Of a stretch of DNA of 64,000 nt, positions 13,141 to 63,233 are shown one piece after another (the first letter of the stretch is position 1; the number at the start of each line of letters is the position of its first letter). Under the pieces are notes generated by a model. It worked only from the letters and a program-made list of their open reading frames with translations. It was not told where the DNA came from and ran no database searches. Location: assembly GCA_964552945.1 (NCBI GenBank), contig CAZKIP010000005.1, positions 2,643 through 66,642 of the forward strand. The letters run 5' to 3'. Origin of the DNA: an uncultured Methanosarcinales archaeon (GTDB lineage Archaea; Nanobdellota; Nanobdellia; Woesearchaeales; GW2011-AR9). The position numbers and the translations under genes are program-made.

Positions 13141-13280
13141 GGGACTGTAGCTCAGACTGGGACGCAAGAATTGTAAAAAGCCAATTCTAGTGCAGTAAAG
13201 AGCGCCAGACTGAAGCAAAGTGATTTCGATTACTTTTTGCAGATATCTGGATGTCCAGGGTTCAAATCCCTGCAGTCCCA
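13141..13280 (+). tRNA. tRNA-Phe (GAA) with two introns (D-loop ~13163-13199, canonical 37/38 ~13216-13244)
   Basis: Acceptor GGGACTG/CAGTCCC, D-stem GCTC/GAGC, anticodon stem CCAGA/TCTGG with loop CTGAAG|A, T-arm CAGGG-TTCAAAT-CCCTG; mature length 74 nt after removing 37-nt and 29-nt inserts. Confidence 0.75.
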
Positions 13281-16955: not shown

Positions 16956-17059
16956 GGGCCTGTGGTGTAATCCGGTAGCGCGTCCGGCTGGCAGCCGGGA
17001 TGTTTCGGGATATTATGAGGTAAACTCTAAATACGAAAATTCAAATCCCGACAGGTCCA
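16956..17059 (+). tRNA. tRNA-Ala (GGC) with ~30-nt intron in the T-arm
   Basis: Acceptor GGGCCTG/CAGGTCC with G3:U70, D-arm GTGT/GCGC, anticodon stem TCCGG/CCGGG with loop CTGGCAG, TCGGG + insert + TTCAAAT CCCGA; TATA (TTAAATATTTAAAT) ~30 nt upstream. Confidence 0.7.
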
Positions 17060-17599: not shown

Positions 17600-17713
17600 C
17601 GGGGCCGCCGCGATTTGAACACGGGTTCCACGACCCCCAGCCGTGGGTGATATCTCTCACGAGAAACTCTGAATAAAAAAGTTTCCTCGCTCCAAGCTAC
17701 ACTACGGCCCCAT
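17600..17713 (-). tRNA. tRNA-Pro (GGG) with ~38-nt intron in the D-arm region
   Basis: Minus-strand read: acceptor GGGGCCG/CGGCCCC, anticodon stem CACGG/TCGTG with loop CTGGGGG, T-arm CCGTG-TTCAAAT-CGCGG, oligo-T after the 3' end; a large insert with a GGAAAC/GTTTCT hairpin interrupts the D-arm. Confidence 0.6.
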
Positions 17714-19958: not shown

Positions 19959-20881
19959 TTATAATCCTTTTTTCAAAAGTTCTCCTGCCAATTCAACTTG
20001 AACCCTACAACCAGCATAAAAAGGCATTCGGTCATGTAAACCTTTTGGAACAACATCTAAAATATCCTCTACGCCATTTGTAGCCGAACCACCAGCCCTT
20101 TCAATCAAAAAAGACATAGCATGCAACTCAAACATTGGACGTAGAGTTGCCCTCTCACTACCATCTTTCATTCTACACGTAGGATATGCAAAAATGTGAT
20201 CTCCTCTTAGTAAAGCTTGGTTAATATCTGAAACTAAACAACGTGAAAATTGATCTTTATACCCTCTCCCCCTTAAATAAGAGATAAACTTTCTATGAGG
20301 TTCTGACCAGGTAGGTTCCGCCCCGCCTGAACTTAAACGTGAAGCCACTTCTCTCATTTTTACATCTTCTTTCAAAAGAGACCAATGCCAATTAGCATCT
20401 AACAAATAGCCATTTACTTTTTCACCAATATTACAAACTAAACTTGTTGCACAGCCATAAAGAATATACATAGCTGCAACCATACTCTCTCGAGGAGTAC
20501 GGCTGTCCAATAACGGCCCTTGATGTATTGAAAATATGGAACCTATAGGTCCATTATATGGAGCGTTACTACTTCCATCTAAAGGGTCATAACAGAATAT
20601 TTTCCGGAAGAACTTACATCAACTATTGAAGGACGTTCTTCAGAAGCAAATTGTATCACACCACCACATTCTCTTAAAGAATCACTTATTCTCTCATCTG
20701 CAAATATATCTAAAGAATTTTGGTGATCTCCCGAAGTGTTTGAAGTTTCCAAAGATTCTGTTCGTCTTCCATATCTTACTTCATCAGAAATTTCATCACA
20801 AGCACCAGCAATACCCATTATTAATTCAACCAAATCTGGTTCAGTTTTATTTTGAACAAGATCCGATTTAAGGGATGGCAT
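19959..20881 (-). pseudogene. fbp: Class I fructose-1,6-bisphosphatase (Fbp), disrupted by a -1 frameshift (ORFs 20579-20881 and 19959-20510)
   Basis: N-terminal piece ends ...SGKYSV; in the -1 frame it continues CYDPLDGSSN...GYxLYGxAT...FAYP...LRPMFELHAMSFLIERAGGSATNG, all class I FBPase hallmarks; shift is at a GGAAAAT homopolymer; region visibly GC-richer than flanks. Confidence 0.7.
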
Positions 20882-20921: not shown

Positions 20922-22445
20922 CTACTTTACTTCCTCTCCCACAATACTTCTTAACATATGTCCCCCAACTTTGACTTTAATTTTCTTCTTTAAGGGGATC
21001 CTTCCTTTAACTCCAATGATTAAAGGATAAGTCCCATATTGTCTACAAAAAGTTGTTTTTCCATCATACATTTCAGTGTAAACATCTTTTAAGATAGTGC
21101 CTTCAGGTAAAATTAATTTCAACATTGGAAAATCTATTTTTTGCCTTATTTCATTCCGCCATTTCCAATAGTATTTTTTATTTTTTCTAAGGAATTTGTT
21201 TCCACCATGTTTCTCTAAGAACGTATCTGGTAACACAGCTACCTGACGAACGTTAATTCTTCTCAACAATAAACCCTCATCCATAATATTTTGTAACATT
21301 TTCATATTTATCTTATGAGTTTCTTTACTCTCATTTAATAATCCAAAAATAATGTTTATCCCTGGCAAGAATTTATGCATCCCATTCTTTCCTCTAACTG
21401 CACCATACTTATTAATAATTTGAATTGCTTTATAGCCAATCAATGGAGAAGTATTTAGTAAATTTGCTTTGACAACCTCTTTATCAAAAGATTCCACCCC
21501 AAAAGCAGCAATATTTCCTGAAGTACAATATTTCACGATAGCTTTTGTGATCTCTTCCCCTCCTGCAGCTACAACAGAATTAGGATTTACATTATCAATA
21601 TGAAGTACTTCAATCTTGGGACATTTCTTGTTAATTTGTTGCAACAATTTTATTGGCTTATCAGATGCATAAAAGTCAGCTTGTTTTCCAAGACGGAAGA
21701 ACCTTGCGCCTTTCTTGTAAAATTCTTCAACTTCTCTAAGAACGTCCTCCATCTTTCGGTTAACAAATTTATTTTTCAGAGGTTCAGTACAAAAACTACA
21801 CTTTCCGACTTTACACCCTCTTCCAGTTTCAACCTCTATAACTCTCTTATCAGGAATTTGTTTAATTATTTCAGTACTTTCTTTAATGTAATCTTCAATT
21901 TCTGCAAAAGGAGCATCATAATTTTTTACTTCATCAAAAAAGCTAAGGTCTGCTTTCTCAAAGAATTTTCCACCTTCTAATTGTGTTCCAAACACAGCCG
22001 GACCGCTCAATATTTTTGGTTTCTTGATATCTTTAAGTAAAGAAGTGATCTCTTGCAAAGTTCCAGGATGTGCTGTTAAATATTTGCCTGGAACGTGAAC
22101 TCCAAGAATAACAATGATTTTTTTTGTTTTAGAGATTATTTCTTCCGCTTTGTTATTAGTTAAATTATAAACATAAATATTTGTTTTCTCTTTCTCCGTC
22201 GGTTCCTTCACTACACCTCCCTTTTGCTTCCACAACCTTACATCATCTATTGTAAGATAAGAAATATCATTCCCTTCCTTACTCAATTTTCCAAATAAAT
22301 ATCTTGGATATGTTCCCAAATAGGGGGGTACACCTAGTCCAGAAGCTTCATCTGTGTAACAATCAATAATGGTAATGTGCATGATAGAATATAATGATTC
22401 TACTTTAAGAATGTTTGGTATAATATAGAAGAAACATAACAACAA
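20922..22445 (-). CDS. B12-binding-like/radical SAM protein (COG1032-type Fe-S oxidoreductase)
   Basis: GRGCKVGKCSFC CxxxCxxC motif preceded by a Rossmann-like IIDCYTDE N-terminal domain; start probably at internal Met (MHITIIDCY). Confidence 0.55.
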   Translation of the reverse strand: MLLCFFYIIPNILKVESLYSIMHITIIDCYTDEASGLGVPPYLGTYPRYLFGKLSKEGNDISYLTIDDVRLWKQKGGVVKEPTEKEKTNIYVYNLTNNKAEEIISKTKKIIVILGVHVPGKYLTAHPGTLQEITSLLKDIKKPKILSGPAVFGTQLEGGKFFEKADLSFFDEVKNYDAPFAEIEDYIKESTEIIKQIPDKRVIEVETGRGCKVGKCSFCTEPLKNKFVNRKMEDVLREVEEFYKKGARFFRLGKQADFYASDKPIKLLQQINKKCPKIEVLHIDNVNPNSVVAAGGEEITKAIVKYCTSGNIAAFGVESFDKEVVKANLLNTSPLIGYKAIQIINKYGAVRGKNGMHKFLPGINIIFGLLNESKETHKINMKMLQNIMDEGLLLRRINVRQVAVLPDTFLEKHGGNKFLRKNKKYYWKWRNEIRQKIDFPMLKLILPEGTILKDVYTEMYDGKTTFCRQYGTYPLIIGVKGRIPLKKKIKVKVGGHMLRSIVGEEVK

Positions 22446-22481
22446 TCTTTTTTAAGGCCATGAAATTGGTTAGGTAAATAG

Positions 22482-23105
22482 ATGGTTTATAAGATTGGCT
22501 TGGTGGGAACTCATGGCACTGGTAAAACTGCCTTAGCTGGTTTAATCAATTCTGAATTAAGAAGGAGGGGCATTGAATCAACGCAAATAATTGAATGTGC
22601 AACAAAAGCTAGAGAAAGAGGAATTGTTATTAACGAAGATACAACTCTGGCAGATCAACTTTACATTCTTTATACTCAATTTTCTGAAGAGATTCTATTT
22701 TCTAGACCCAGGGAAGGACATCCCAAATATGAAGTCATTGTTTGCGATCGTGGCCCTGACAATTATTGCTATTTAGAAAGAAGTGTAGGTCCTAGTGAAG
22801 GTGCTTTATTGTTAACTTTGAGGCACTTAAAATTTTTCAATTATGACAGATTATATCTTCTGCCAATTGTAAGTAGTGGGCCCCCTACTAGAAACGGAGT
22901 TCGTGCAGCTGATCCTGAATTTCAGAAAGAAATGGATCAAAGAGTTAGGGCTTTTCTTGCAAAATATGAGATTCCTCATACCATTCTTCCTACTCCTGAA
23001 GAGAGTGATCCTTATCGGAATGAATGGATTAGAATTGTTGTTAACGACACTCTAAAAAGTTTAGGAATGCCTGAGAGATGTTATATTAAAAGAACAAAAA
23101 TTTAG
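22482..23105 (+). CDS. P-loop NTPase (AAA_28/NadR-kinase-like)
   Basis: GLVGTHGTGKTALAG Walker A near the N-terminus; 207 aa. Confidence 0.4.
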   Translation: MVYKIGLVGTHGTGKTALAGLINSELRRRGIESTQIIECATKARERGIVINEDTTLADQLYILYTQFSEEILFSRPREGHPKYEVIVCDRGPDNYCYLERSVGPSEGALLLTLRHLKFFNYDRLYLLPIVSSGPPTRNGVRAADPEFQKEMDQRVRAFLAKYEIPHTILPTPEESDPYRNEWIRIVVNDTLKSLGMPERCYIKRTKI

Positions 23106-23110
23106 TTAAG

Positions 23111-23413
23111 TTAATTAATTCCATATTCTCTTTTAGATTTCTCAAAATCAGAACGCAAAAAAGGATAATAAAAACGATCAATGAAGCAATCATCAATTGA
23201 ATCCTTATGTGCAGGGATTTCAAGTTGATGAGAGGACGAATTTCCTTCATGACTTCTTAAATGAGAATTATTTTGATAATGTAAAAAATTAGGGGCAATG
23301 CTAGGACCATTTCCAAGCATAAGATTACCAACAAATCTTAAAAGTGATAAAACTTCCGAGGATTGTTCTACTTTTCTTGCAACATATTTCACTAAAACGT
23401 TTTTTACTGACAT
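23111..23413 (-). CDS. Hypothetical small protein
   Basis: 100-aa ORF in the gap between flanking genes. Confidence 0.2.
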   Translation of the reverse strand: MSVKNVLVKYVARKVEQSSEVLSLLRFVGNLMLGNGPSIAPNFLHYQNNSHLRSHEGNSSSHQLEIPAHKDSIDDCFIDRFYYPFLRSDFEKSKREYGIN

Positions 23414-23429
23414 TTTTATTTAAAAAGAG

Positions 23430-23609
23430 TGGCCCCGCCGAGACTTTCAAAACCTGAAAGGCTTGTTTTGCTCAAGCTTTTCTTAAAAGGTTATTTGAAC
23501 TCGGGACCTCACGATTTCAGTCATAACGATGTTATGATATCAGTCGTGCGCTCTTTCCTGCTTCCAAGTCTTAATAAGCCTCGAAAGTACCAGGCTAAGC
23601 CACGGGGCC
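23430..23609 (-). tRNA. tRNA-Ile (GAU) with three introns (D-loop ~34 nt, canonical 37/38 ~22 nt, T-loop/T-stem ~50 nt)
   Basis: Minus-strand read: acceptor GGCCCCG/CGGGGCC + A, D-stem GCTT/GAGC around loop AGCCTGGTA, anticodon stem CACGA/TCGTG with loop CTGATA|A and a 7-bp intron hairpin TCATAAC/GTTATGA, variable AGGTC, T-arm CCGAG-TTCAAAT-[insert]-CTCGG; 180 nt = 74 + 106. Confidence 0.65.
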
Positions 23610-23640
23610 ATAAACTCAAAGATAAAGCAGTTCTATAAAA

Positions 23641-23830
23641 AGATAACGGAAATTTTCACAATTTCCGGAATCTTTCAAAAAATCTTGTTTTTTGCTAGAT
23701 AACGGAAATCTTCTTGATTTAACGGTCTTCCAAAATCTTGTTTTTTGCTAGATAACGGAAAATATTGTATTTTCCGGGATCTTTCAAAAATGAACCATTT
23801 TTTCTAGATAGCAGAAATTTTCACAATAGC
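23641..23830. repeat. ~55-bp tandem repeat, 3.5 copies, each starting AGATAACGGAAA and containing a CGGAAA...TTTCCG-type palindrome
   Basis: Copies begin at ~23641, 23698, 23751 and 23807; lies in the divergent region between tRNA-Ile and the first surface lipoprotein gene. Confidence 0.6.
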
Positions 23831-23975
23831 CCCTCTTATTTCCCCCCATATACCCACTCAACAATATATTCTCATCCCTATAAATCTTTAAATAAAAGTT
23901 GCTATTCTAAAATCGTAAAAATCAAGATTGGTTTTTAAAATTAAATTCAAGTTTTAACACAGGGGGTGTGTTTTT

Positions 23976-25025
23976 ATGAAAAAAGTAATGATATATGGAT
24001 TGATAATAGTTTCTTTGATAGTTCTAGCTGGATGTGCTCAATACAAAGCCATCGACACTCAAAACGATGAAGATCTTAGCTTAATTGATGAAATTGCAAA
24101 AATTGAAGAAGAATTAGCTCAAGAAGAGATTAAGGAAGATACAACACCAGAAGAAACCACTGATACTGCAGAAGAAGCAGTGGATGAAACAGTAAATGAA
24201 GAAGAAGTTGTAATTCCTGATTTAGATGAAGCAGCAGTAATGAATACAGAAGCAGTAACCATCTCAGTAAAAGAAAATGAGTTAGTTAAAGTTAATGCTA
24301 AAGTTTCAGACCCTGATGAAGATCCAGTTACTTATACTTTCAGCAAACCTCTAAACAATAATGGAGAATGGAAAACCAATTATGGAGATGCAGGAGAATA
24401 CATGGTTACTTTAAAAGCTACAGATGGAAAATTAACCACCGAGAAAGTAATCAAGCTTGTAGTTGAGAGAGTGAACGTTCCTCCAGTTATCGATGGTGTT
24501 AAAGATATAACTATCCTAGAAGGAGAAACGGTTACTTTTGAACCTAAAGTAACAGACCCAAACAACGATGCCGTTACAGTTACAATCTCTGAACCATTGA
24601 AAAGTGGAACTTTTGTAACTGACCATACCAGTTTTGGTGAATACAATATTGTTGTAAGTGCTTCAGATGGAGAATTGGATACTGAAAAAACTTTCAAACT
24701 TACAGTAAACAATGTAAATGAAAAACCAGTTATCTCTGGTCTTGAAGACTTGAAGATTAAGGAAGGAGACGTTGTTAAACTTAAACCAACCGTAACTGAC
24801 TTGGATGAAGACCCAATCACTTTAACTATAAGTGAACCGGTTGGCGACGATGGAATCTGGGCAACATCTTACACAGATAATGGGGAATATGTTATCACTG
24901 TTACTGCAGATGATGGACAAGACAAAATTGTTCAAAAAGTAACTATAACAATTGAGGATATTAACAAAGCTCCAGAAATTGTAGATATTTCCTTAGGACC
25001 AAATAGTCCTGCTGTGAGTAGTTAA
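23976..25025 (+). CDS. Cell-surface lipoprotein with three cadherin/Ig-like repeat domains
   Basis: Lipobox signal MKKVMIYGLIIVSLIVLAGC; Glu-rich linker; ~95-aa repeats sharing DPDEDPVTYTF...W.T.YGDAGEY.V...A.DG; strong GGGGGTG SD. Confidence 0.6.
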   Translation: MKKVMIYGLIIVSLIVLAGCAQYKAIDTQNDEDLSLIDEIAKIEEELAQEEIKEDTTPEETTDTAEEAVDETVNEEEVVIPDLDEAAVMNTEAVTISVKENELVKVNAKVSDPDEDPVTYTFSKPLNNNGEWKTNYGDAGEYMVTLKATDGKLTTEKVIKLVVERVNVPPVIDGVKDITILEGETVTFEPKVTDPNNDAVTVTISEPLKSGTFVTDHTSFGEYNIVVSASDGELDTEKTFKLTVNNVNEKPVISGLEDLKIKEGDVVKLKPTVTDLDEDPITLTISEPVGDDGIWATSYTDNGEYVITVTADDGQDKIVQKVTITIEDINKAPEIVDISLGPNSPAVSS

Positions 25026-25081
25026 TTTTTTTCTTATTTTTTATTTTAAATTTTTTAAAATCAAAAAAAGTGGCGTGAAAA

Positions 25082-27439
25082 ATGAAACATAAAATTGTTA
25101 AACTAGTTTTAGGTGTGGTAATCCTAATTTTAATTCTACAAACCGTTTTTGCCGCCACAAGAGTTTTTCAAGTACAAGAAACAGATTTTGTGAAAATAAA
25201 TGCTAAAGCGATAGACCCAGATTTGGATAAAGTAACTTACCAATTTGGAGAACCACTGGATCAAGATGGCGAATGGCAAACAACCTATGGAGATGCGGGA
25301 GAGTATGAAATTGATGTTAAGGCATCTGATGGAAAAAATGAAACTATCAAAAAAATAAAATTGGTAGTTACTAAAAGAAATCAAGCACCCTATGTTAAAG
25401 AAAAAAAGTTAGTGGCAAAAGAATCTAAAACAGTTAATTTAAAAGAAGCTATCGTTGACCCAGATGGAGATGTTTTAACTTACACATTTAAAGCTCCTTT
25501 TAACGAAAAAGGCGTTTGGCAAACTAATTTTAACGATGCGGGAGAACACACCGCTTCATTTACAGTAACTGATGGAGAATTCTTAATAGAAGCAAAGGTA
25601 AACGTCGTAATTGAGGATAAAAATCAACCCCCTTTCATTGACAACATTTTCTCTGAAGAGGATAAATTAGAGTTTAATGAAGGTGAAGAGTTAAATTTTT
25701 CTGTAAAAGTAAGAGACATAGATAGTGAAAATATTGATTATATTTGGAAATTGGATGGGGCAAAAATTAGTGAAGATAATGAAGGAGAACATGAATTTGA
25801 TTACGATTCTTCCGGTGAACACCAATTGGAACTTCAGGTTAGTGATGGAGAAAACAATATAGAAAGAAGTTGGAAAATTGAAATTGAAAACACCAATAGA
25901 AAACCTGCATTAAGTCTAGAACCAATAACCGTTAATGAAGGAGAATTAGTAAAGTTAATTCTTCCCGGTAAAGATCAAGATGGAGATTCCCTTACCTATG
26001 AACTAGAAAAACCTTTAGATAGTAATGGAAAATGGAAAACTGATTTTGAAGACGCGGGAAAATATTTTGCCGAAGTTGTTGCAGATGATGGGGAATATAA
26101 ATCTCAAACAGAAGTTGAAATAAATGTAGTTGATGTTGACAGAATCCCTACTTTAAACGTACCAACCAGGCTAGAAGTGAAAGAAGGAGAGAAACTTTCT
26201 TGGACAATTGATACTACAGACCCAGATAATGATGTCCTCGACATTAAAGTAATCAATGCACCAGAAGGTTCAATTCTTAATAAGAAAGTCTTTTCATGGG
26301 AACCTGATTTCTCAGCGATAAAAAGAAAGGGTGGATTTGTGAGTAATGTTTTAAATTCGTTAAATTTAGAAAGGTTTTTTCTAAAAATGAAAGTTATCCC
26401 TCTAAAAATTAAAGTATGTGGAAAAAGTTTATGTAATAATAAAGAGTTAGAGTTGGTTGTCTACAATGTAAATCGTCCTCCAGTTATGCAAGGACAAAAA
26501 AACTATACAATTCAAGAAACTGAAGAATTGACAATTGTGCCTTCTGCAATAGACCCAGACGGAGATATTGTTAAGTATGCTTTCTCATCACCAGTTCAAA
26601 AAAGAAGTGGTAAATGGAAAACTAGTTTTGATGACGAAGGGATTTATGATATCTATGTATCTGCCACTGATGGGAGATTTACTGACACATTACCTTTTGT
26701 TGTGAATGTAAAGAAAAAGAATCGTGGGCCTTCATTAAATGTTGATAAAGATGAATTTGTTATTTTAGAAGGTAAAAAGCTATCGTTCAAAGTTACCGCT
26801 TCAGATCCTGATGAAGACAATTTGAATATTGAATTAGAAAATCTTCCTCCTGGAGCTTCGTTTAAAGATGAAACATTTATTTGGACTCCTTCAAAAGAAT
26901 TTGTTAAGAATAAAAGTTCTGGAACCATAAACAAAATATTACAAAAATCTTCATATCTTATCAAAAAATTTAGTGATGACGAAAAAACGCATTGGTTAAA
27001 ATTTTCTGCAGACGATGGAGAAACAAAAACAATTCATCCAGTAAAAGTTATTGTTAAAAACAAAAATCAGGCACCTAAGATCATTGATTATCTTCCTATG
27101 AATAAAACACTTTTTACAGAAGTTAACAAACCTTTAATTTTCCACGTTACAGCAACCGATTCTGATAACGATAAGTTAAGTTACGAATGGAGTTTTGATT
27201 TTGGACAGCAAAAAGTTAGAGGGACTGATACTATTGAAAGAACTTTCCTTACTCCTGGAGAAAAAAAGGTCAAAGTCAAAGTAACTGACGGACTAGAAAC
27301 AGTTGAAAAAGAATGGATGGTTTCTGTACAAGAAGTTCTCTATCCTACTCCAGTTATAATTTCAAATCCTACTCAAAATGTACCTCAAGCACTATCTCCT
27401 CCTGAAACTGAAACTTTTAGGGTAATTGTTATTGAATAG
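25082..27439 (+). CDS. Cell-surface protein with ~8 cadherin/Ig-like repeat domains (paralog of upstream gene)
   Basis: Signal peptide; repeated DPD.D.LTY.F..P....G.W.T.F.DAG.Y motif units along 785 aa. Confidence 0.6.
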   Translation: MKHKIVKLVLGVVILILILQTVFAATRVFQVQETDFVKINAKAIDPDLDKVTYQFGEPLDQDGEWQTTYGDAGEYEIDVKASDGKNETIKKIKLVVTKRNQAPYVKEKKLVAKESKTVNLKEAIVDPDGDVLTYTFKAPFNEKGVWQTNFNDAGEHTASFTVTDGEFLIEAKVNVVIEDKNQPPFIDNIFSEEDKLEFNEGEELNFSVKVRDIDSENIDYIWKLDGAKISEDNEGEHEFDYDSSGEHQLELQVSDGENNIERSWKIEIENTNRKPALSLEPITVNEGELVKLILPGKDQDGDSLTYELEKPLDSNGKWKTDFEDAGKYFAEVVADDGEYKSQTEVEINVVDVDRIPTLNVPTRLEVKEGEKLSWTIDTTDPDNDVLDIKVINAPEGSILNKKVFSWEPDFSAIKRKGGFVSNVLNSLNLERFFLKMKVIPLKIKVCGKSLCNNKELELVVYNVNRPPVMQGQKNYTIQETEELTIVPSAIDPDGDIVKYAFSSPVQKRSGKWKTSFDDEGIYDIYVSATDGRFTDTLPFVVNVKKKNRGPSLNVDKDEFVILEGKKLSFKVTASDPDEDNLNIELENLPPGASFKDETFIWTPSKEFVKNKSSGTINKILQKSSYLIKKFSDDEKTHWLKFSADDGETKTIHPVKVIVKNKNQAPKIIDYLPMNKTLFTEVNKPLIFHVTATDSDNDKLSYEWSFDFGQQKVRGTDTIERTFLTPGEKKVKVKVTDGLETVEKEWMVSVQEVLYPTPVIISNPTQNVPQALSPPETETFRVIVIE

Positions 27440-27515: not shown

Positions 27516-29060
27516 ATGGATCAAACTATCAAATTAGCTTTAGATACCATTAAAATAAATAAACAAGCTATTATTTTTAACCCTAGCAGAGCTAGTGCAG
27601 AGAAAACTGCGGAAGACATTTCTAAACTAACAGATTTATTTCATCCAGAACTTGAGAAAGGAGTTCTGCATTCTATATCAAGCCCTACTAAACAATGTAG
27701 GAGGTTATCTAATTGTGTAAAAAAAGGAATCGCTTTCCATCATTCTGGGTTAACAAGTAAACAAAAAGAAATTGTTGAAGAATCTTTCAAAGAAGGTAAA
27801 ATAAAAATTATATCTGCTACACCTACTTTAGCAGCAGGACTTAGCATGCCTGCTTTCAGAGTAATTATCAAATCTCTTAAAAGATACTCTGGCAGCTGGG
27901 GAATGAATTGGATTCCTGTTTTAGAATATTTACAAATGGCAGGGAGAGCAGGAAGGCCGGAGTATGAAGCTTTTGGAGAATCCATTGTTATAGCAAAAAC
28001 TGAACCTGAGAGAGATGAGATTGTTGAAAGATACATCAAAGGTGTGCCAGAAGACATTTATTCCAAGTTAGCAGCAGAACCGATCTTAAGAACCTACCTT
28101 CTTTCATTAATTTCTTCTGGATTAATCCGTGATGAAGAAAGCATGAACAATTTTTTCAGTAAAACCTTTTGGGCTCACCAGTTTAAAGACATGAATAAGT
28201 TGCAACAGATTATGGAAAAGATGATTCTTTTACTTGAAGAATGGGGATTTATTTCAATCCAAGGAAAAGAGGGAGTTAATTCAGACTTTGTAAGCGCTCA
28301 AGATCTTGACAATAAAAGTAAAAGTAACAAAACAATGAGGCCAACCCTTATTGGTAAAAGAATCTCTGAACTTTATCTTGACCCATTAACTGCAAATCAT
28401 CTTATCAATTGTTTGAAAAATTATGATGACAAAAAAGAACATTTTTCTCTATTACAAATGATTTCCCACACTTTAGAGATGAGACCTCTACTAAGAATCA
28501 AGAAAAAAGAAGAAGAAATTATTAATGAAGAGTTGACAAAAAATTATCATTTGCTTCTTGAAAAAGAACCTTCATCTTTTGATATTGAATATGATGAATT
28601 TTTCAATTCCATAAAAACCTCGCTCTTTTTTGGAGATTGGGTTGATGAAAAAAATGAAGATTACCTTTTAGAGAAATATAATGTTCGTCCAGGAGAAATT
28701 AGAAGCAAGATTGAATCTGCCAACTGGCTAATTTATGCAGCTAAAGAGTTAGCAAAAATAAATGGAGACAATTTGGTAGCACATGAATTAAGAAAACTTC
28801 GAGAGATGGTAAAAAATGGAGTTCGTGAAGAACTTCTTCCACTTCTAAAATTGAAAGGGATTGGGAGAGTTAGGGCTAGAAAACTTTTCTCTCATGGCAT
28901 GAAAGATTTAGGTCATTTGAGAAGAACAGATTTAACGTCTCTTACTCAAATTGTTGGTAAGGCCACTGCTGAAAGTGTTAAGATTCAATTGGGTGAAGAA
29001 ATAAAAGTAATTCCAAAAGGGACTAGGAAAGGTCAATTGAGCATGGAGAAATTTAAATAA
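27516..29060 (+). CDS. Hel308/Ski2-like helicase, C-terminal portion only (RecA2, winged-helix, ratchet and HhH domains; RecA1 missing)
   Basis: Begins directly with the helicase C domain (IAFHHSGL...ISATPTLAAGLSMPAFRVII...QMAGRAGRP) and ends with the GIGRVRARKL HhH domain; no Walker A/DEAH domain; own TATA (AAATATATAAAAG) ~25 nt upstream. Confidence 0.65.
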   Translation: MDQTIKLALDTIKINKQAIIFNPSRASAEKTAEDISKLTDLFHPELEKGVLHSISSPTKQCRRLSNCVKKGIAFHHSGLTSKQKEIVEESFKEGKIKIISATPTLAAGLSMPAFRVIIKSLKRYSGSWGMNWIPVLEYLQMAGRAGRPEYEAFGESIVIAKTEPERDEIVERYIKGVPEDIYSKLAAEPILRTYLLSLISSGLIRDEESMNNFFSKTFWAHQFKDMNKLQQIMEKMILLLEEWGFISIQGKEGVNSDFVSAQDLDNKSKSNKTMRPTLIGKRISELYLDPLTANHLINCLKNYDDKKEHFSLLQMISHTLEMRPLLRIKKKEEEIINEELTKNYHLLLEKEPSSFDIEYDEFFNSIKTSLFFGDWVDEKNEDYLLEKYNVRPGEIRSKIESANWLIYAAKELAKINGDNLVAHELRKLREMVKNGVREELLPLLKLKGIGRVRARKLFSHGMKDLGHLRRTDLTSLTQIVGKATAESVKIQLGEEIKVIPKGTRKGQLSMEKFK

Positions 29061-46185: not shown

Positions 46186-46941
46186 ATGACTAGCTTTATT
46201 GAGTTGGGAGAACGTGTAAAAAAATTTCTTAGATTTAGTAAGCAAGAGATGATTACCATTTTAATTGCTGTCTTTGTTACTGCTTTTATTTTTTCTTTTC
46301 GTGATTGGGGAGAAGATACTTTCAACTTAACCCTAGGGCTTACAAACCTATTTTTGGTTTTTCTTGTTGCAGGATTTTCTTTCTTTTTCAGGCAATCTTG
46401 CCAGAAAATCTATGCTTTAAGTACAGGATATAAAGCCGAATTCAAAATTTGGTGGGGAGGAATTGCAATTGCCCTAGTTTTTGCTTTCCTCAGTGCTGGA
46501 AGAATTCCTTTAATTATAGCAGGAACAATGGTTTCAGCATTTATGATAAAACAACGGTTGGGAGAGTTTAGGTATGGTTTTTCTTATGGAGAAGCATCTA
46601 TGACTGGAATGTGGGGCCTTCTTGGTAACTTAATTGCTGCCATTTTCTTTTCTATTGGCGCTTATTTTTTACCTGGCAATTATTTCTTTGATATGGGAGT
46701 ATTTCTTAACATAATCATGGCTTTTTGCTCTTTAATACCTTTACCACAACTCGATGGCCTTCATATTTTCTTTGGAAGTAGGGCTGTCTATGTTCTTGGC
46801 ATAATTTTTTCACTTTTAGCTACACTCTTACTTTTAGGTCACAAAGTAAATTTATTACCTCATAAAGTAGGTTTGGTTGCTGCTATAGTTATTGGTGTAG
46901 TTGGGGGAATAATTTATATTTTAGTGATGTCTGAAAAATAA
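46186..46941 (+). CDS. Polytopic membrane protein
   Basis: 251 aa, ~7 TM helices. Confidence 0.35.
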   Translation: MTSFIELGERVKKFLRFSKQEMITILIAVFVTAFIFSFRDWGEDTFNLTLGLTNLFLVFLVAGFSFFFRQSCQKIYALSTGYKAEFKIWWGGIAIALVFAFLSAGRIPLIIAGTMVSAFMIKQRLGEFRYGFSYGEASMTGMWGLLGNLIAAIFFSIGAYFLPGNYFFDMGVFLNIIMAFCSLIPLPQLDGLHIFFGSRAVYVLGIIFSLLATLLLLGHKVNLLPHKVGLVAAIVIGVVGGIIYILVMSEK

Positions 46942-55377: not shown

Positions 55378-55488
55378 AGGGCCTGGAGGGAATTTCACTA
55401 GACGTTCGTTCCATCACTTGCGTCATAGACTTGAACCCCCGATCTGTCCCTCTGCAGGGGACCGCTTTAGCCGCTTAGCCACAGACCC
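55378..55488 (-). tRNA. tRNA-Cys (GCA) with ~38-nt intron between T-loop and T-stem 3' strand
   Basis: Acceptor GGGTCTG/CAGGCCC + U73, anticodon stem GTCCC/GGGAC with loop CTGCAGA, T-stem GGGGG...CCCTC with TTCAAGT loop then insert; TATA (ACTATATAAAT) upstream and oligo-T downstream. Confidence 0.7.
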
Positions 55489-55536: not shown

Positions 55537-55671
55537 TGGGCCTGATGGGAAAGTCGAAGCATCGCTCCTTTCTGCGAAACTTATTCGAACCCACGGTATC
55601 CAGCTCTCATCAATTGGTTTTTACAACCAACATAGAAGGCTGGCGCCCTATCCAGACTAGGCTACAGGCCC
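55537..55671 (-). tRNA. tRNA-Arg (UCU) with two introns (canonical 37/38 ~27 nt with TTGGTT/AACCAA hairpin; T-loop/T-stem ~33 nt)
   Basis: Acceptor GGGCCTG/CAGGCCC, D-arm GCCT/GGGC, anticodon stem CCAGC/GCTGG with loop CTTCTA|A, T-arm GTGGG-TTCGAAT-[insert]-CCCAT. Confidence 0.65.
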
Positions 55672-62599: not shown

Positions 62600-63233
62600 A
62601 AATAGTCAGTTTTTTCGAATGTTTAAATAGTTTTGCAGAGTTTTATTGTGTTGTCCTTAAAAAGTAACAACAATAGCGAAACATTTATATATTAGTACCT
62701 CCAAGAAGTAACAACACACCTCAAAACCACCTCTTTTCCTCAGTGGATTTGGAAACTCAATCGCTTCGGCGAAAGTAGTGCCTAAATTCGCTGGGGTTTT
62801 TCTTTTTTAAATAAGTCAATATTTCCCCTTATTGCCCTTTTGGGGCCATTATTTCTCTTTTTAATCAAAAAACCAATTAATTTACCGAAGGTTTTATATA
62901 ATAGAAGAACTAATTTTTAATTAGCCCGGCACGAGAGTACCTTTGGGAGTTGACGGCAATCGCCAAGCAATGAATAAAGGGGTTAGTGGAACGGGCTTCA
63001 TAATTACTCAGAAAATTTGAATATTATCCTTATCATTCACTATACTGTATCACCAAGTTTGCTTAGGATTAGTTCTGTTTTCTGAATCATAAAATAATAA
63101 CAAAGAAAGGGTTTCCTTTATCACATTCATACTCACTACATCATTGTGCTGGATAGCTCTTTCTAGAGGAAAAAAATGGTAAAAATAAAGAATATCATTT
63201 TTAGTATTTAAAAATCATGGAGGATTTTTTAAA

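Follow-up and report, generated by a model that had tools for sequence, protein, structure and literature searches.

A tRNA-Ile(GAU) gene with three predicted BHB-class introns in a marine Woesearchaeota-type archaeon

We analysed a 64-kb stretch of archaeal DNA (hereafter, the window) and found on its minus strand an interrupted gene of 180 nt (23430-23609; start GGCCCCG, end CGGGGCCA), which very probably encodes a functional tRNA-Ile(GAU) that is expressed in a marine DPANN archaeon of the Woesearchaeota type; its three BHB-class introns at tRNA positions 20/21, 37/38, and 59/60 would be removed by protein-dependent splicing. This assignment is based on the exon/intron boundaries, the motifs at the splice junctions, orthology, purifying selection on the exons, covariation, and conservation of the promoter. 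When the three inserts of 34, 22, and 50 nt were removed in silico, a 74-nt product was obtained that ARAGORN identified as tRNA-Ile(GAT) with a canonical cloverleaf, confirming an earlier sequence-only reading in which a 180-nt minus-strand gene yields tRNA-Ile after the removal of three inserts. All exons and introns are given on the minus strand. Exon 1 (23589-23609, 21 nt, GGCCCCGTGGCTTAGCCTGGT) supplies the 5' strands of the acceptor stem and the D-stem and the D-loop up to position 20, and is followed by intron 1 (23555-23588, 34 nt), which interrupts the D-loop at 20/21 with an HBh' motif. Exon 2 (23538-23554, 17 nt, AGAGCGCACGACTGATA) comprises A21, the 3' strand of the D-stem, G26, the 5' strand of the anticodon stem, and loop positions 32-37 with the anticodon GAU. 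Intron 2 (23516-23537, 22 nt), at the canonical position 37/38 and with a relaxed motif, separates it from exon 3 (23494-23515, 22 nt, ATCGTGAGGTCCCGAGTTCAAA), which contains A38, the 3' strand of the anticodon stem, the variable loop, the 5' strand of the T-stem, and T-loop positions 54-59. Intron 3 (23444-23493, 50 nt) lies in the T-loop at 59/60 with an hBH motif and precedes exon 4 (23430-23443, 14 nt, TCTCGGCGGGGCCA), which carries U60, the 3' strands of the T-stem and the acceptor stem, and the discriminator base A73; CCA is not encoded. The third insert had been placed at 60/61 in the earlier reading, which is equivalent in sequence because U117 and U167 are identical, but the BHB geometry puts intron 3 at 59/60.

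The gene is flanked by a BRE/TATA-like promoter (23634-23649, minus strand, CCGTTATCTTTTTATA), the last base of which lies 25 nt upstream of the tRNA 5' end, and by an oligo-T terminator-like run (23422-23429, minus strand, CTCTTTTT) directly after the discriminator base. All four exons follow one another in order within 180 nt, preceded by one TATA box and followed by one T-run, and a split or permuted tRNA gene was rejected on these grounds. The G+C content was 62% in the exons and 32-41% in the introns, the window as a whole having 33%. No ORF of at least 70 aa was found between 23414 and 23975, that is, none overlaps the tRNA-Ile gene, and the introns are short (22-50 nt), non-coding, and devoid of a ribozyme core, as BHB introns are. 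The minimum free energy (MFE) fold of the unspliced 180-mer was a cloverleaf with the D, anticodon, and T arms each extended by a hairpin (-63.9 kcal/mol, z = -4.2; none of 200 shuffles was as good), and it contained the perfect 7-bp hairpin UCAUAAC/GUUAUGA of the anticodon intron (intron 2) that had been pointed out before. The unspliced gene was matched neither by ARAGORN nor by Rfam (at the gathering threshold and at E <= 10), which reflects a limit of these tools and is no evidence against the gene. If the introns were released as circles, the predicted junctions would join GGAAGCAGGAA to ACTTTCGAGG in intron 1, TTATGACTGAA to TCATAACATC in intron 2, and GGTTTTGAAAG to TAACCTTTTAAG in intron 3. 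Directly upstream of the gene, a 56-nt tandem repeat in 3.4 copies (71% matches) occupies 23641-23827, the final unit stopping at the BRE-like CCGTTATCT in the promoter.

Splice-site motifs were scored with a central helix H of 4 bp, two bulges of 3 nt, and a cut after the second bulge nucleotide (↓), in every register giving the same mature sequence; for an intron at 37/38, H includes nucleotides 32-35 by convention (PMC4090602). In intron 1, H (CCUG/CAGG) was fully paired (4/4), the 5' bulge was GU↓A, and the inner helix had 8 bp, while the 3' site AA↓A sits in a 2x3 internal loop adjoining the D-stem. In intron 2, the anticodon stem (5 bp) is the outer helix and the bulges are UA↓U and AA↓A; its central helix CUGA/ACUG is weak, with 2/4 pairs and U.U and A.A mismatches, and its inner hairpin has 6 bp, or 7 bp if U73-A89 closes. 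In intron 3, the T-stem (5 bp) is the outer helix, H (UUCA/UGAA) was again paired at 4/4 positions, and the 3' bulge AG↓U was present in the MFE fold; at its 5' site, AA↓U, the inner helix has just 2 bp in strict geometry. Forcing strict 3-nt bulges at all six sites cost 7.0 kcal/mol above the MFE, so that two of the six splice sites are relaxed rather than textbook. The boundaries of all three introns thus lie in BHB-class motifs, of the HBh' type in intron 1, of the hBH type in intron 3, and relaxed in intron 2, and the inspection of the junctions that had been proposed along with the earlier reading found a BHB-class motif at each of them, in the register required by the cloverleaf. An unconditional scan for relaxed BHB motifs was unspecific (19 hits in the real 180-mer versus about 12 per shuffled 180-mer), and a conditional test at the tRNA-dictated junctions was therefore used. 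A motif arose by chance at these junctions in 0.085%, 2.1%, and 2.7% of shuffles for introns 1, 2, and 3, respectively (P = 0.00085, 0.021, and 0.027), and the joint chance of the three, taken as the product with exons fixed and introns shuffled, was 4.8e-7; among off-register junction pairs, 4 of 864 passed the motif test. An alternative register of the anticodon loop, giving GAA (Phe) or UGA, was rejected, as it breaks the anticodon stem and leaves no motif. The Phe register is further opposed by orthologues without a 37/38 intron, which read CUGAUAA, and by a separate tRNA-Phe(GAA) at 13141-13280.

Using exon 1 as a search pattern, we identified 18 loci in species-representative genomes, mostly MAGs of Candidatus Woesearchaeota or Nanoarchaeota (nine are labelled 'uncultured Methanosarcinales', which we took as a mislabel), and 26 further loci in a metagenome scan. 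Together with the window, these loci gave 30 distinct tRNA-Ile(GAU) genes and one tRNA-Ile(UAU). A spliced-alignment dynamic programme resolved every one of the 30 into a 74-nt mature sequence; the 74-mers comprised 14 distinct sequences with a mean column identity of 96%. One gene had no intron, nine had one, ten had two, and ten had three. The introns were located at 20/21 (7 genes), 30/31 (9 genes), 37/38 (27 genes), 43/44 (3 genes, one possibly 46/47), and 59/60 (13 genes). The layout with D-loop, 37/38, and T-loop introns was shared by six genes, namely those of the window and of loci L005, L010, L012, L017, and L020, a count in which the register of the programme was off by a few nt in L017 (19/20) and L010 (56/57). 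The gene without introns, L016, differs from the predicted product of the window gene solely by a compensatory pair in the T-stem (CGGAG/CUCCG versus CCGAG/CUCGG). Its Rfam tRNA score was 70.4 bits, while genes with one 37/38 intron scored 55-61 bits, those with two introns about 49 bits, and L011, with a single T-loop intron, 29.4 bits as a partial match; no three-intron orthologue was detected by the Rfam tRNA model. One or more of the genes that flank the tRNA in the window (radical SAM, AAA_28, or PKD) was found beside it in 34 of 42 loci, indicating that the tRNA genes are positional orthologues. Identities to the window were 52-77% (mostly 65-77%) for the radical SAM protein, 43-59% for AAA_28, and 25-67% (mostly 39-67%) for the two PKD-repeat proteins that flank the tRNA. 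Flanking genes of the window matched Woesearchaeota MAGs at 45-77% identity, and on the basis of these matches the window was placed in the Woesearchaeota clade (NCBI: Archaea; Nanobdellati; Candidatus Woesearchaeota). The order radical SAM, AAA_28, tRNA-Ile, PKD-repeat surface proteins (20922-27439 in the window; loci L004-L047) is kept in many Woesearchaeota genomes, which makes the locus a handy anchor for comparing intron gain and loss.

Two further RNAs were noticed among these loci. The tRNA-Ile(UAU), for the AUA codon, lies in a Woesearchaeota MAG (L014, 4006-4113, plus strand), has the same acceptor stem and 5' strand of the D-stem as tRNA-Ile(GAU), and is interrupted by a single 33-nt intron at the canonical position, the hBHBh' motif of which is complete. 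Among archaea, tRNA-Ile(UAU) is rare; in Nanoarchaeum it is reported to take the place of the agmatidine system. An Rfam RT-16 RNA (64.7 bits; gathering threshold 50) was found in a Woesearchaeota MAG from groundwater (L010, 7226-7392, minus strand), a few kb from the tRNA-Ile gene.

Comparison of the orthologues separated the exons clearly from the introns. The exons were about 96% conserved, those of the window being identical to the exons of several orthologues, whereas the introns had diverged almost completely. Exon 1 was identical in 30/30 genes by construction, being the search pattern, and the invariance of the acceptor stem, which is partly forced in this way, was not counted as evidence. 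In the spliced alignment, 99.3% of the cloverleaf cells were paired, against 38-52% in slid registers. Compensatory double changes were found in 4/5 pairs of the T-stem (17 cells) with 100% pairing, and the covariation score was reached by none of 500 shuffles. Since the two strands of the T-stem lie on opposite sides of intron 3, pairing across this intron is under selection. Intron interiors were near-random, the best local alignments with introns at the same position reaching z values of 4-5; intron 2 showed a weak similarity (z = 4.2) to the 37/38 intron of L005, which is 40 nt long and has the same GACUGAA at its end, and reached z = 2.6 with that of L021. At their 3' ends, the introns at 20/21 terminate in GC(A/G)GGAA, which pairs with the invariant D-loop, and most introns at 59/60 terminate in a purine-rich hexamer (such as UGAAAG, GGAAAG, or UGAGAG), which pairs with the invariant T-loop. 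In unconstrained folds, the H helix and an unpaired 5' splice site were recovered in five of seven D-arm introns (four with a 3-nt bulge and L008 with a longer loop), and the motif was reproduced in six of 13 T-arm introns. The inner helices covary (CUUUCGAG/CUUGGAAG, CUUUG/CAAAG, CUUUGU/ACAGAG, and CUU.GCGUG/CACGC.AAG). The BRE/TATA-like element CTTTAAAAA or a close variant was found about 25-35 nt upstream of every orthologue for which upstream sequence was available, and a T-rich tract lies just downstream of most. As judged from these alignments, conserved exons joined to near-unalignable introns are the signature of purifying selection on the exons alone.

These data bear directly on whether the gene could be a decaying tRNA pseudogene, its inserts being inactivating junk while another, intact tRNA-Ile(GAU) serves the cell. 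We regard this as very unlikely. The invisibility of the unspliced gene to ARAGORN and Rfam and the imperfect central helix of intron 2 are compatible with decay, and a second intact copy is conceivable elsewhere, the inspected DNA being 64 kb of the genome, but decay is contradicted by exons with 96% mean column identity across 30 orthologues beside almost unalignable introns, by compensatory T-stem changes across intron 3 and 99.3% paired cells, by the conserved promoter and terminator, and by a splice motif in the exact register in each insert. Moreover, six species-level genomes have retained this arrangement of three introns at the syntenic locus. We consider it highly improbable that one or more of the inserts is not removed by EndA, being self-splicing (group I/II-like) or retained as an expansion segment. 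Group I introns are found in archaea, including in Woesearchaeota rRNA genes (PMC6125680), and the BHB motif of intron 2 is relaxed, yet inserts of 22-50 nt are far below the size of a group I or II ribozyme, no Rfam family was found in the region even at E <= 10, and all three inserts show BHB-type geometry. Retention in the D- and T-loops would also destroy the tertiary interaction between G18-G19 and the T-loop, and the intronless L016 shows that the mature form is the standard 74-mer. An assembly or chimera artefact, conceivable in principle for a contig from a metagenome-type assembly, has a negligible chance and was excluded because two further assemblies, made independently from other samples (JGI 3300007504 and Logan SRR9166051), contain the identical 180-nt gene with the same neighbours, and homologous three-intron genes occur in many MAGs. 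The same contigs are also present in JGI 3300009008.

In the established archaeal pathway, EndA cleaves BHB-type motifs and an RtcB-type ligase joins the exons. For a functional three-intron tRNA-Ile(GAU), the 180-nt transcript would fold into a cloverleaf in which each of the D, anticodon, and T arms presents its own splice motif. Each motif belongs to a different arm and a single fold accommodates all three, so that no splicing order would be required. EndA would cut in the 3-nt bulges of each BHB-type motif, and the exon fragments would be held together by the D-stem (exons 1 and 2), the anticodon stem (exons 2 and 3), the T-stem (exons 3 and 4), and the acceptor stem (exons 4 and 1). An RtcB-type ligase would then join the four exons, the three introns being released, probably as circles, and the 74-nt tRNA would receive its CCA post-transcriptionally. 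Neither EndA nor RtcB was found in the 64-kb window, of which about 50 ORFs were scanned with Pfam, or in about 340 kb of related loci, which were searched by phmmer with an approximate M. jannaschii EndA query; we therefore infer EndA and its specificity from the literature and regard splicing in vivo as predicted. Two of the three introns do not have a full hBHBh' motif, and the enzyme would therefore have to tolerate relaxed substrates. This agrees with the sequence-only reading, which had argued for an enzyme with relaxed hBH/HBh' recognition, and the relaxed motifs lend it support. It is not necessarily of the alpha2beta2 or epsilon2 type that the same reading had suggested looking for, as tRNA disruption in DPANN has been linked to alpha4-type EndAs with an L3 loop (PMC5829648).

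The tRNA-Ile gene is not the only interrupted tRNA gene in the window. All six tRNA genes found there contain introns, 10 in total and 7 of them non-canonical, which gives 1.67 introns per gene in this small sample, and the positions 20/21 and 59/60 are used repeatedly. Each spliced tRNA was verified with ARAGORN. In addition to tRNA-Ile, they are tRNA-Phe(GAA) (13141-13280, plus strand; introns 13162-13198 at 20/21 and 13216-13244 at 37/38), tRNA-Ala(GGC) (16956-17059, plus strand; intron 17010-17039 at 53/54), tRNA-Pro(GGG) (17600-17711, minus strand; intron 17654-17690 at 20/21), tRNA-Cys(GCA) (55378-55488, minus strand; intron 55392-55429 at 59/60), and tRNA-Arg(UCU) (55537-55671, minus strand; introns 55606-55632 at 37/38 and 55551-55583 at 59/60). 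The boundary of the 37/38 intron of tRNA-Arg was set at the BHB-optimal cut, which yields Arg(UCU). Before splicing, tRNA-Ala alone exceeded the Rfam threshold, and ARAGORN reported tRNA-Pro as a 69-nt fragment. A sweep of the window for acceptor stems and T-arms revealed no further tRNAs, giving just AT-rich chance hits in an ORF at 46295-46460. The 20/21 intron of tRNA-Phe (13162-13198) and the 37/38 intron of tRNA-Arg (55606-55632) have TTGTAAAAA(G)CCAATT in common (15/16 nt), a likeness with z = 6.8 that was the sole outlier among 45 intron pairs and hints at duplication or transposition of an intron between tRNA genes. Intron transposition between tRNA genes has been described for Thermoproteales.

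Multi-intron tRNA genes are known from Thermoproteales, where the mean number of introns per tRNA gene is 0.84, as against 0.21 in archaea, with a maximum of three per gene (PMC8450103). Pyrobaculum calidifontis is the record holder with 71 introns in 46 tRNA genes, or 1.54 per gene (PMC8450103), and tRNA-Pro(UGG) of P. islandicum has introns at 25/26, 37/38, and 56/57 (Sugahara et al. 2007/2008, as related in PMC4090602 and PMC8450103). Like them, the tRNA-Ile gene combines a canonical intron with one intron in the D-arm and another in the T-arm, all three short and of the BHB class, with relaxed hBH/HBh' sites. It also respects the maximum of three introns per gene, and the intron density of the window is similar (10 in 6 genes versus 71 in 46). 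However, its host is a mesophilic marine DPANN archaeon with 33% GC, not a GC-rich hyperthermophilic crenarchaeon, its D-arm and T-arm insertion points (20/21 and 59/60) differ from those of P. islandicum tRNA-Pro(UGG), and its lineage is expected to have an EndA other than the crenarchaeal alpha2beta2 form with the CSL/L1 loop. Thaumarchaeota, for the non-canonical tRNA introns of which tRNAscan-SE 2.0 has a dedicated BHB model (PMC8450103), are likewise marine and AT-rich and possess numerous non-canonical BHB introns, the detection of which required clade-specific models, but they belong to another phylum and have another enzyme type (alpha2beta2). The window is further set apart from them by its genes for DNA gyrase A, a Hef-type helicase-nuclease, and topoisomerase VI and by the matches of its flanking genes to Woesearchaeota MAGs. 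Split and permuted tRNAs (Nanoarchaeum equitans, Caldivirga, Thermofilum; PMC3218864, PMC4090602) share with the tRNA-Ile gene the joining through BHB, EndA, and ligase and breakpoints in the same arms, whereas the tRNA-Ile gene is one colinear unit of 180 nt and involves neither trans-splicing nor circular permutation.

Within DPANN, ARMAN-2/Micrarchaeum has an epsilon2 EndA that is linked to disrupted tRNA genes (PMC3488258). The survey by Kaneta et al. 2018 (PMC5829648), which covered one Woesearchaeota genome (RBG_13_36_6) and one Pacearchaeota genome, links the increased tRNA disruption in DPANN to an alpha4-type EndA with an L3 loop and predicts that such genomes hold disrupted tRNA genes yet to be identified. 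The tRNA-Ile gene is an example of the disrupted DPANN tRNA genes predicted there, and it comes from the same superphylum and, as judged from the related genomes, from the same phylum as the surveyed Woesearchaeota genome. Beyond that survey, in the figure of which Woesearchaeota are represented by one genome, we here describe one particular gene, for which 30 syntenic orthologues are available, the junctions are mapped, and covariation is seen. The searchable literature yielded no specific account of multi-intron Woesearchaeota tRNAs other than this survey (PMC5829648). It had earlier been suggested that the gene would be unusual in an AT-rich small-genome archaeon. This description of the host holds (33% GC, with Woesearchaeota/Nanoarchaeota relatives in DPANN), but within its lineage the gene is not unusual, since 10 of 30 orthologues have three introns and six of six tRNAs in the window are interrupted. 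The emphasis on rarity was also overstated because increased DPANN tRNA disruption is already noted by Kaneta et al. 2018 (PMC5829648). The tRNA-Ile gene is thus sound and not unprecedented, being one of many interrupted tRNA genes in this lineage that are missed by standard finders.

A wider proposal, which we put forward as a tentative and rather doubtful one, is that marine Woesearchaeota carry one of the heaviest cellular loads of tRNA introns, with fast turnover at hot spots (20/21, 30/31, 37/38, 43/44, and 59/60) and occasional transposition, all introns being processed by an alpha4-type EndA with an L3 insert. The window has 1.67 introns per tRNA gene, from six genes, compared with 1.54 in P. 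calidifontis. If the proposal were true, many of the tRNAs 'missing' from DPANN MAGs would be annotation failures and not real losses, and a simple alpha4-type EndA with L3 would suffice where alpha2beta2 or epsilon2 enzymes were thought necessary. Genes of this kind are invisible to ARAGORN and Rfam, and DPANN genomes can therefore seem to be without essential tRNAs; such apparent gaps feed claims on genome completeness and host dependence. The same tRNA with 0, 1, 2, or 3 introns at five positions is a substrate set for the specificity of DPANN EndA, the breadth of which was proposed in 2018, although within the searchable literature no particular substrates have been connected with it. The orthologue series also represents a natural experiment on how archaeal tRNA introns are gained and lost, and how they diverge, outside Thermoproteales.

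Among the other genes of the window, fructose-1,6-bisphosphatase is divided between two adjacent minus-strand ORFs (19959-20510 and 20579-20881), one matching its N-terminal and the other its C-terminal Pfam domain, and a Hel308-like helicase ORF (27516-29060, plus strand) is without the N-terminal DEAD domain; both cases could reflect frameshifts, split genes, or pseudogenes. A GC-rich island of 76 nt (62923-62998, plus strand; from GCCCGGCACGAG to GGAACGGGC) lies about 25 nt downstream of the TATA-like TTTTATATAA, within a 1.4-kb stretch free of ORFs. The island matched nothing in Rfam, its fold did not reach significance (z = -1.4 and -2.1), and it may be an unclassified small RNA.
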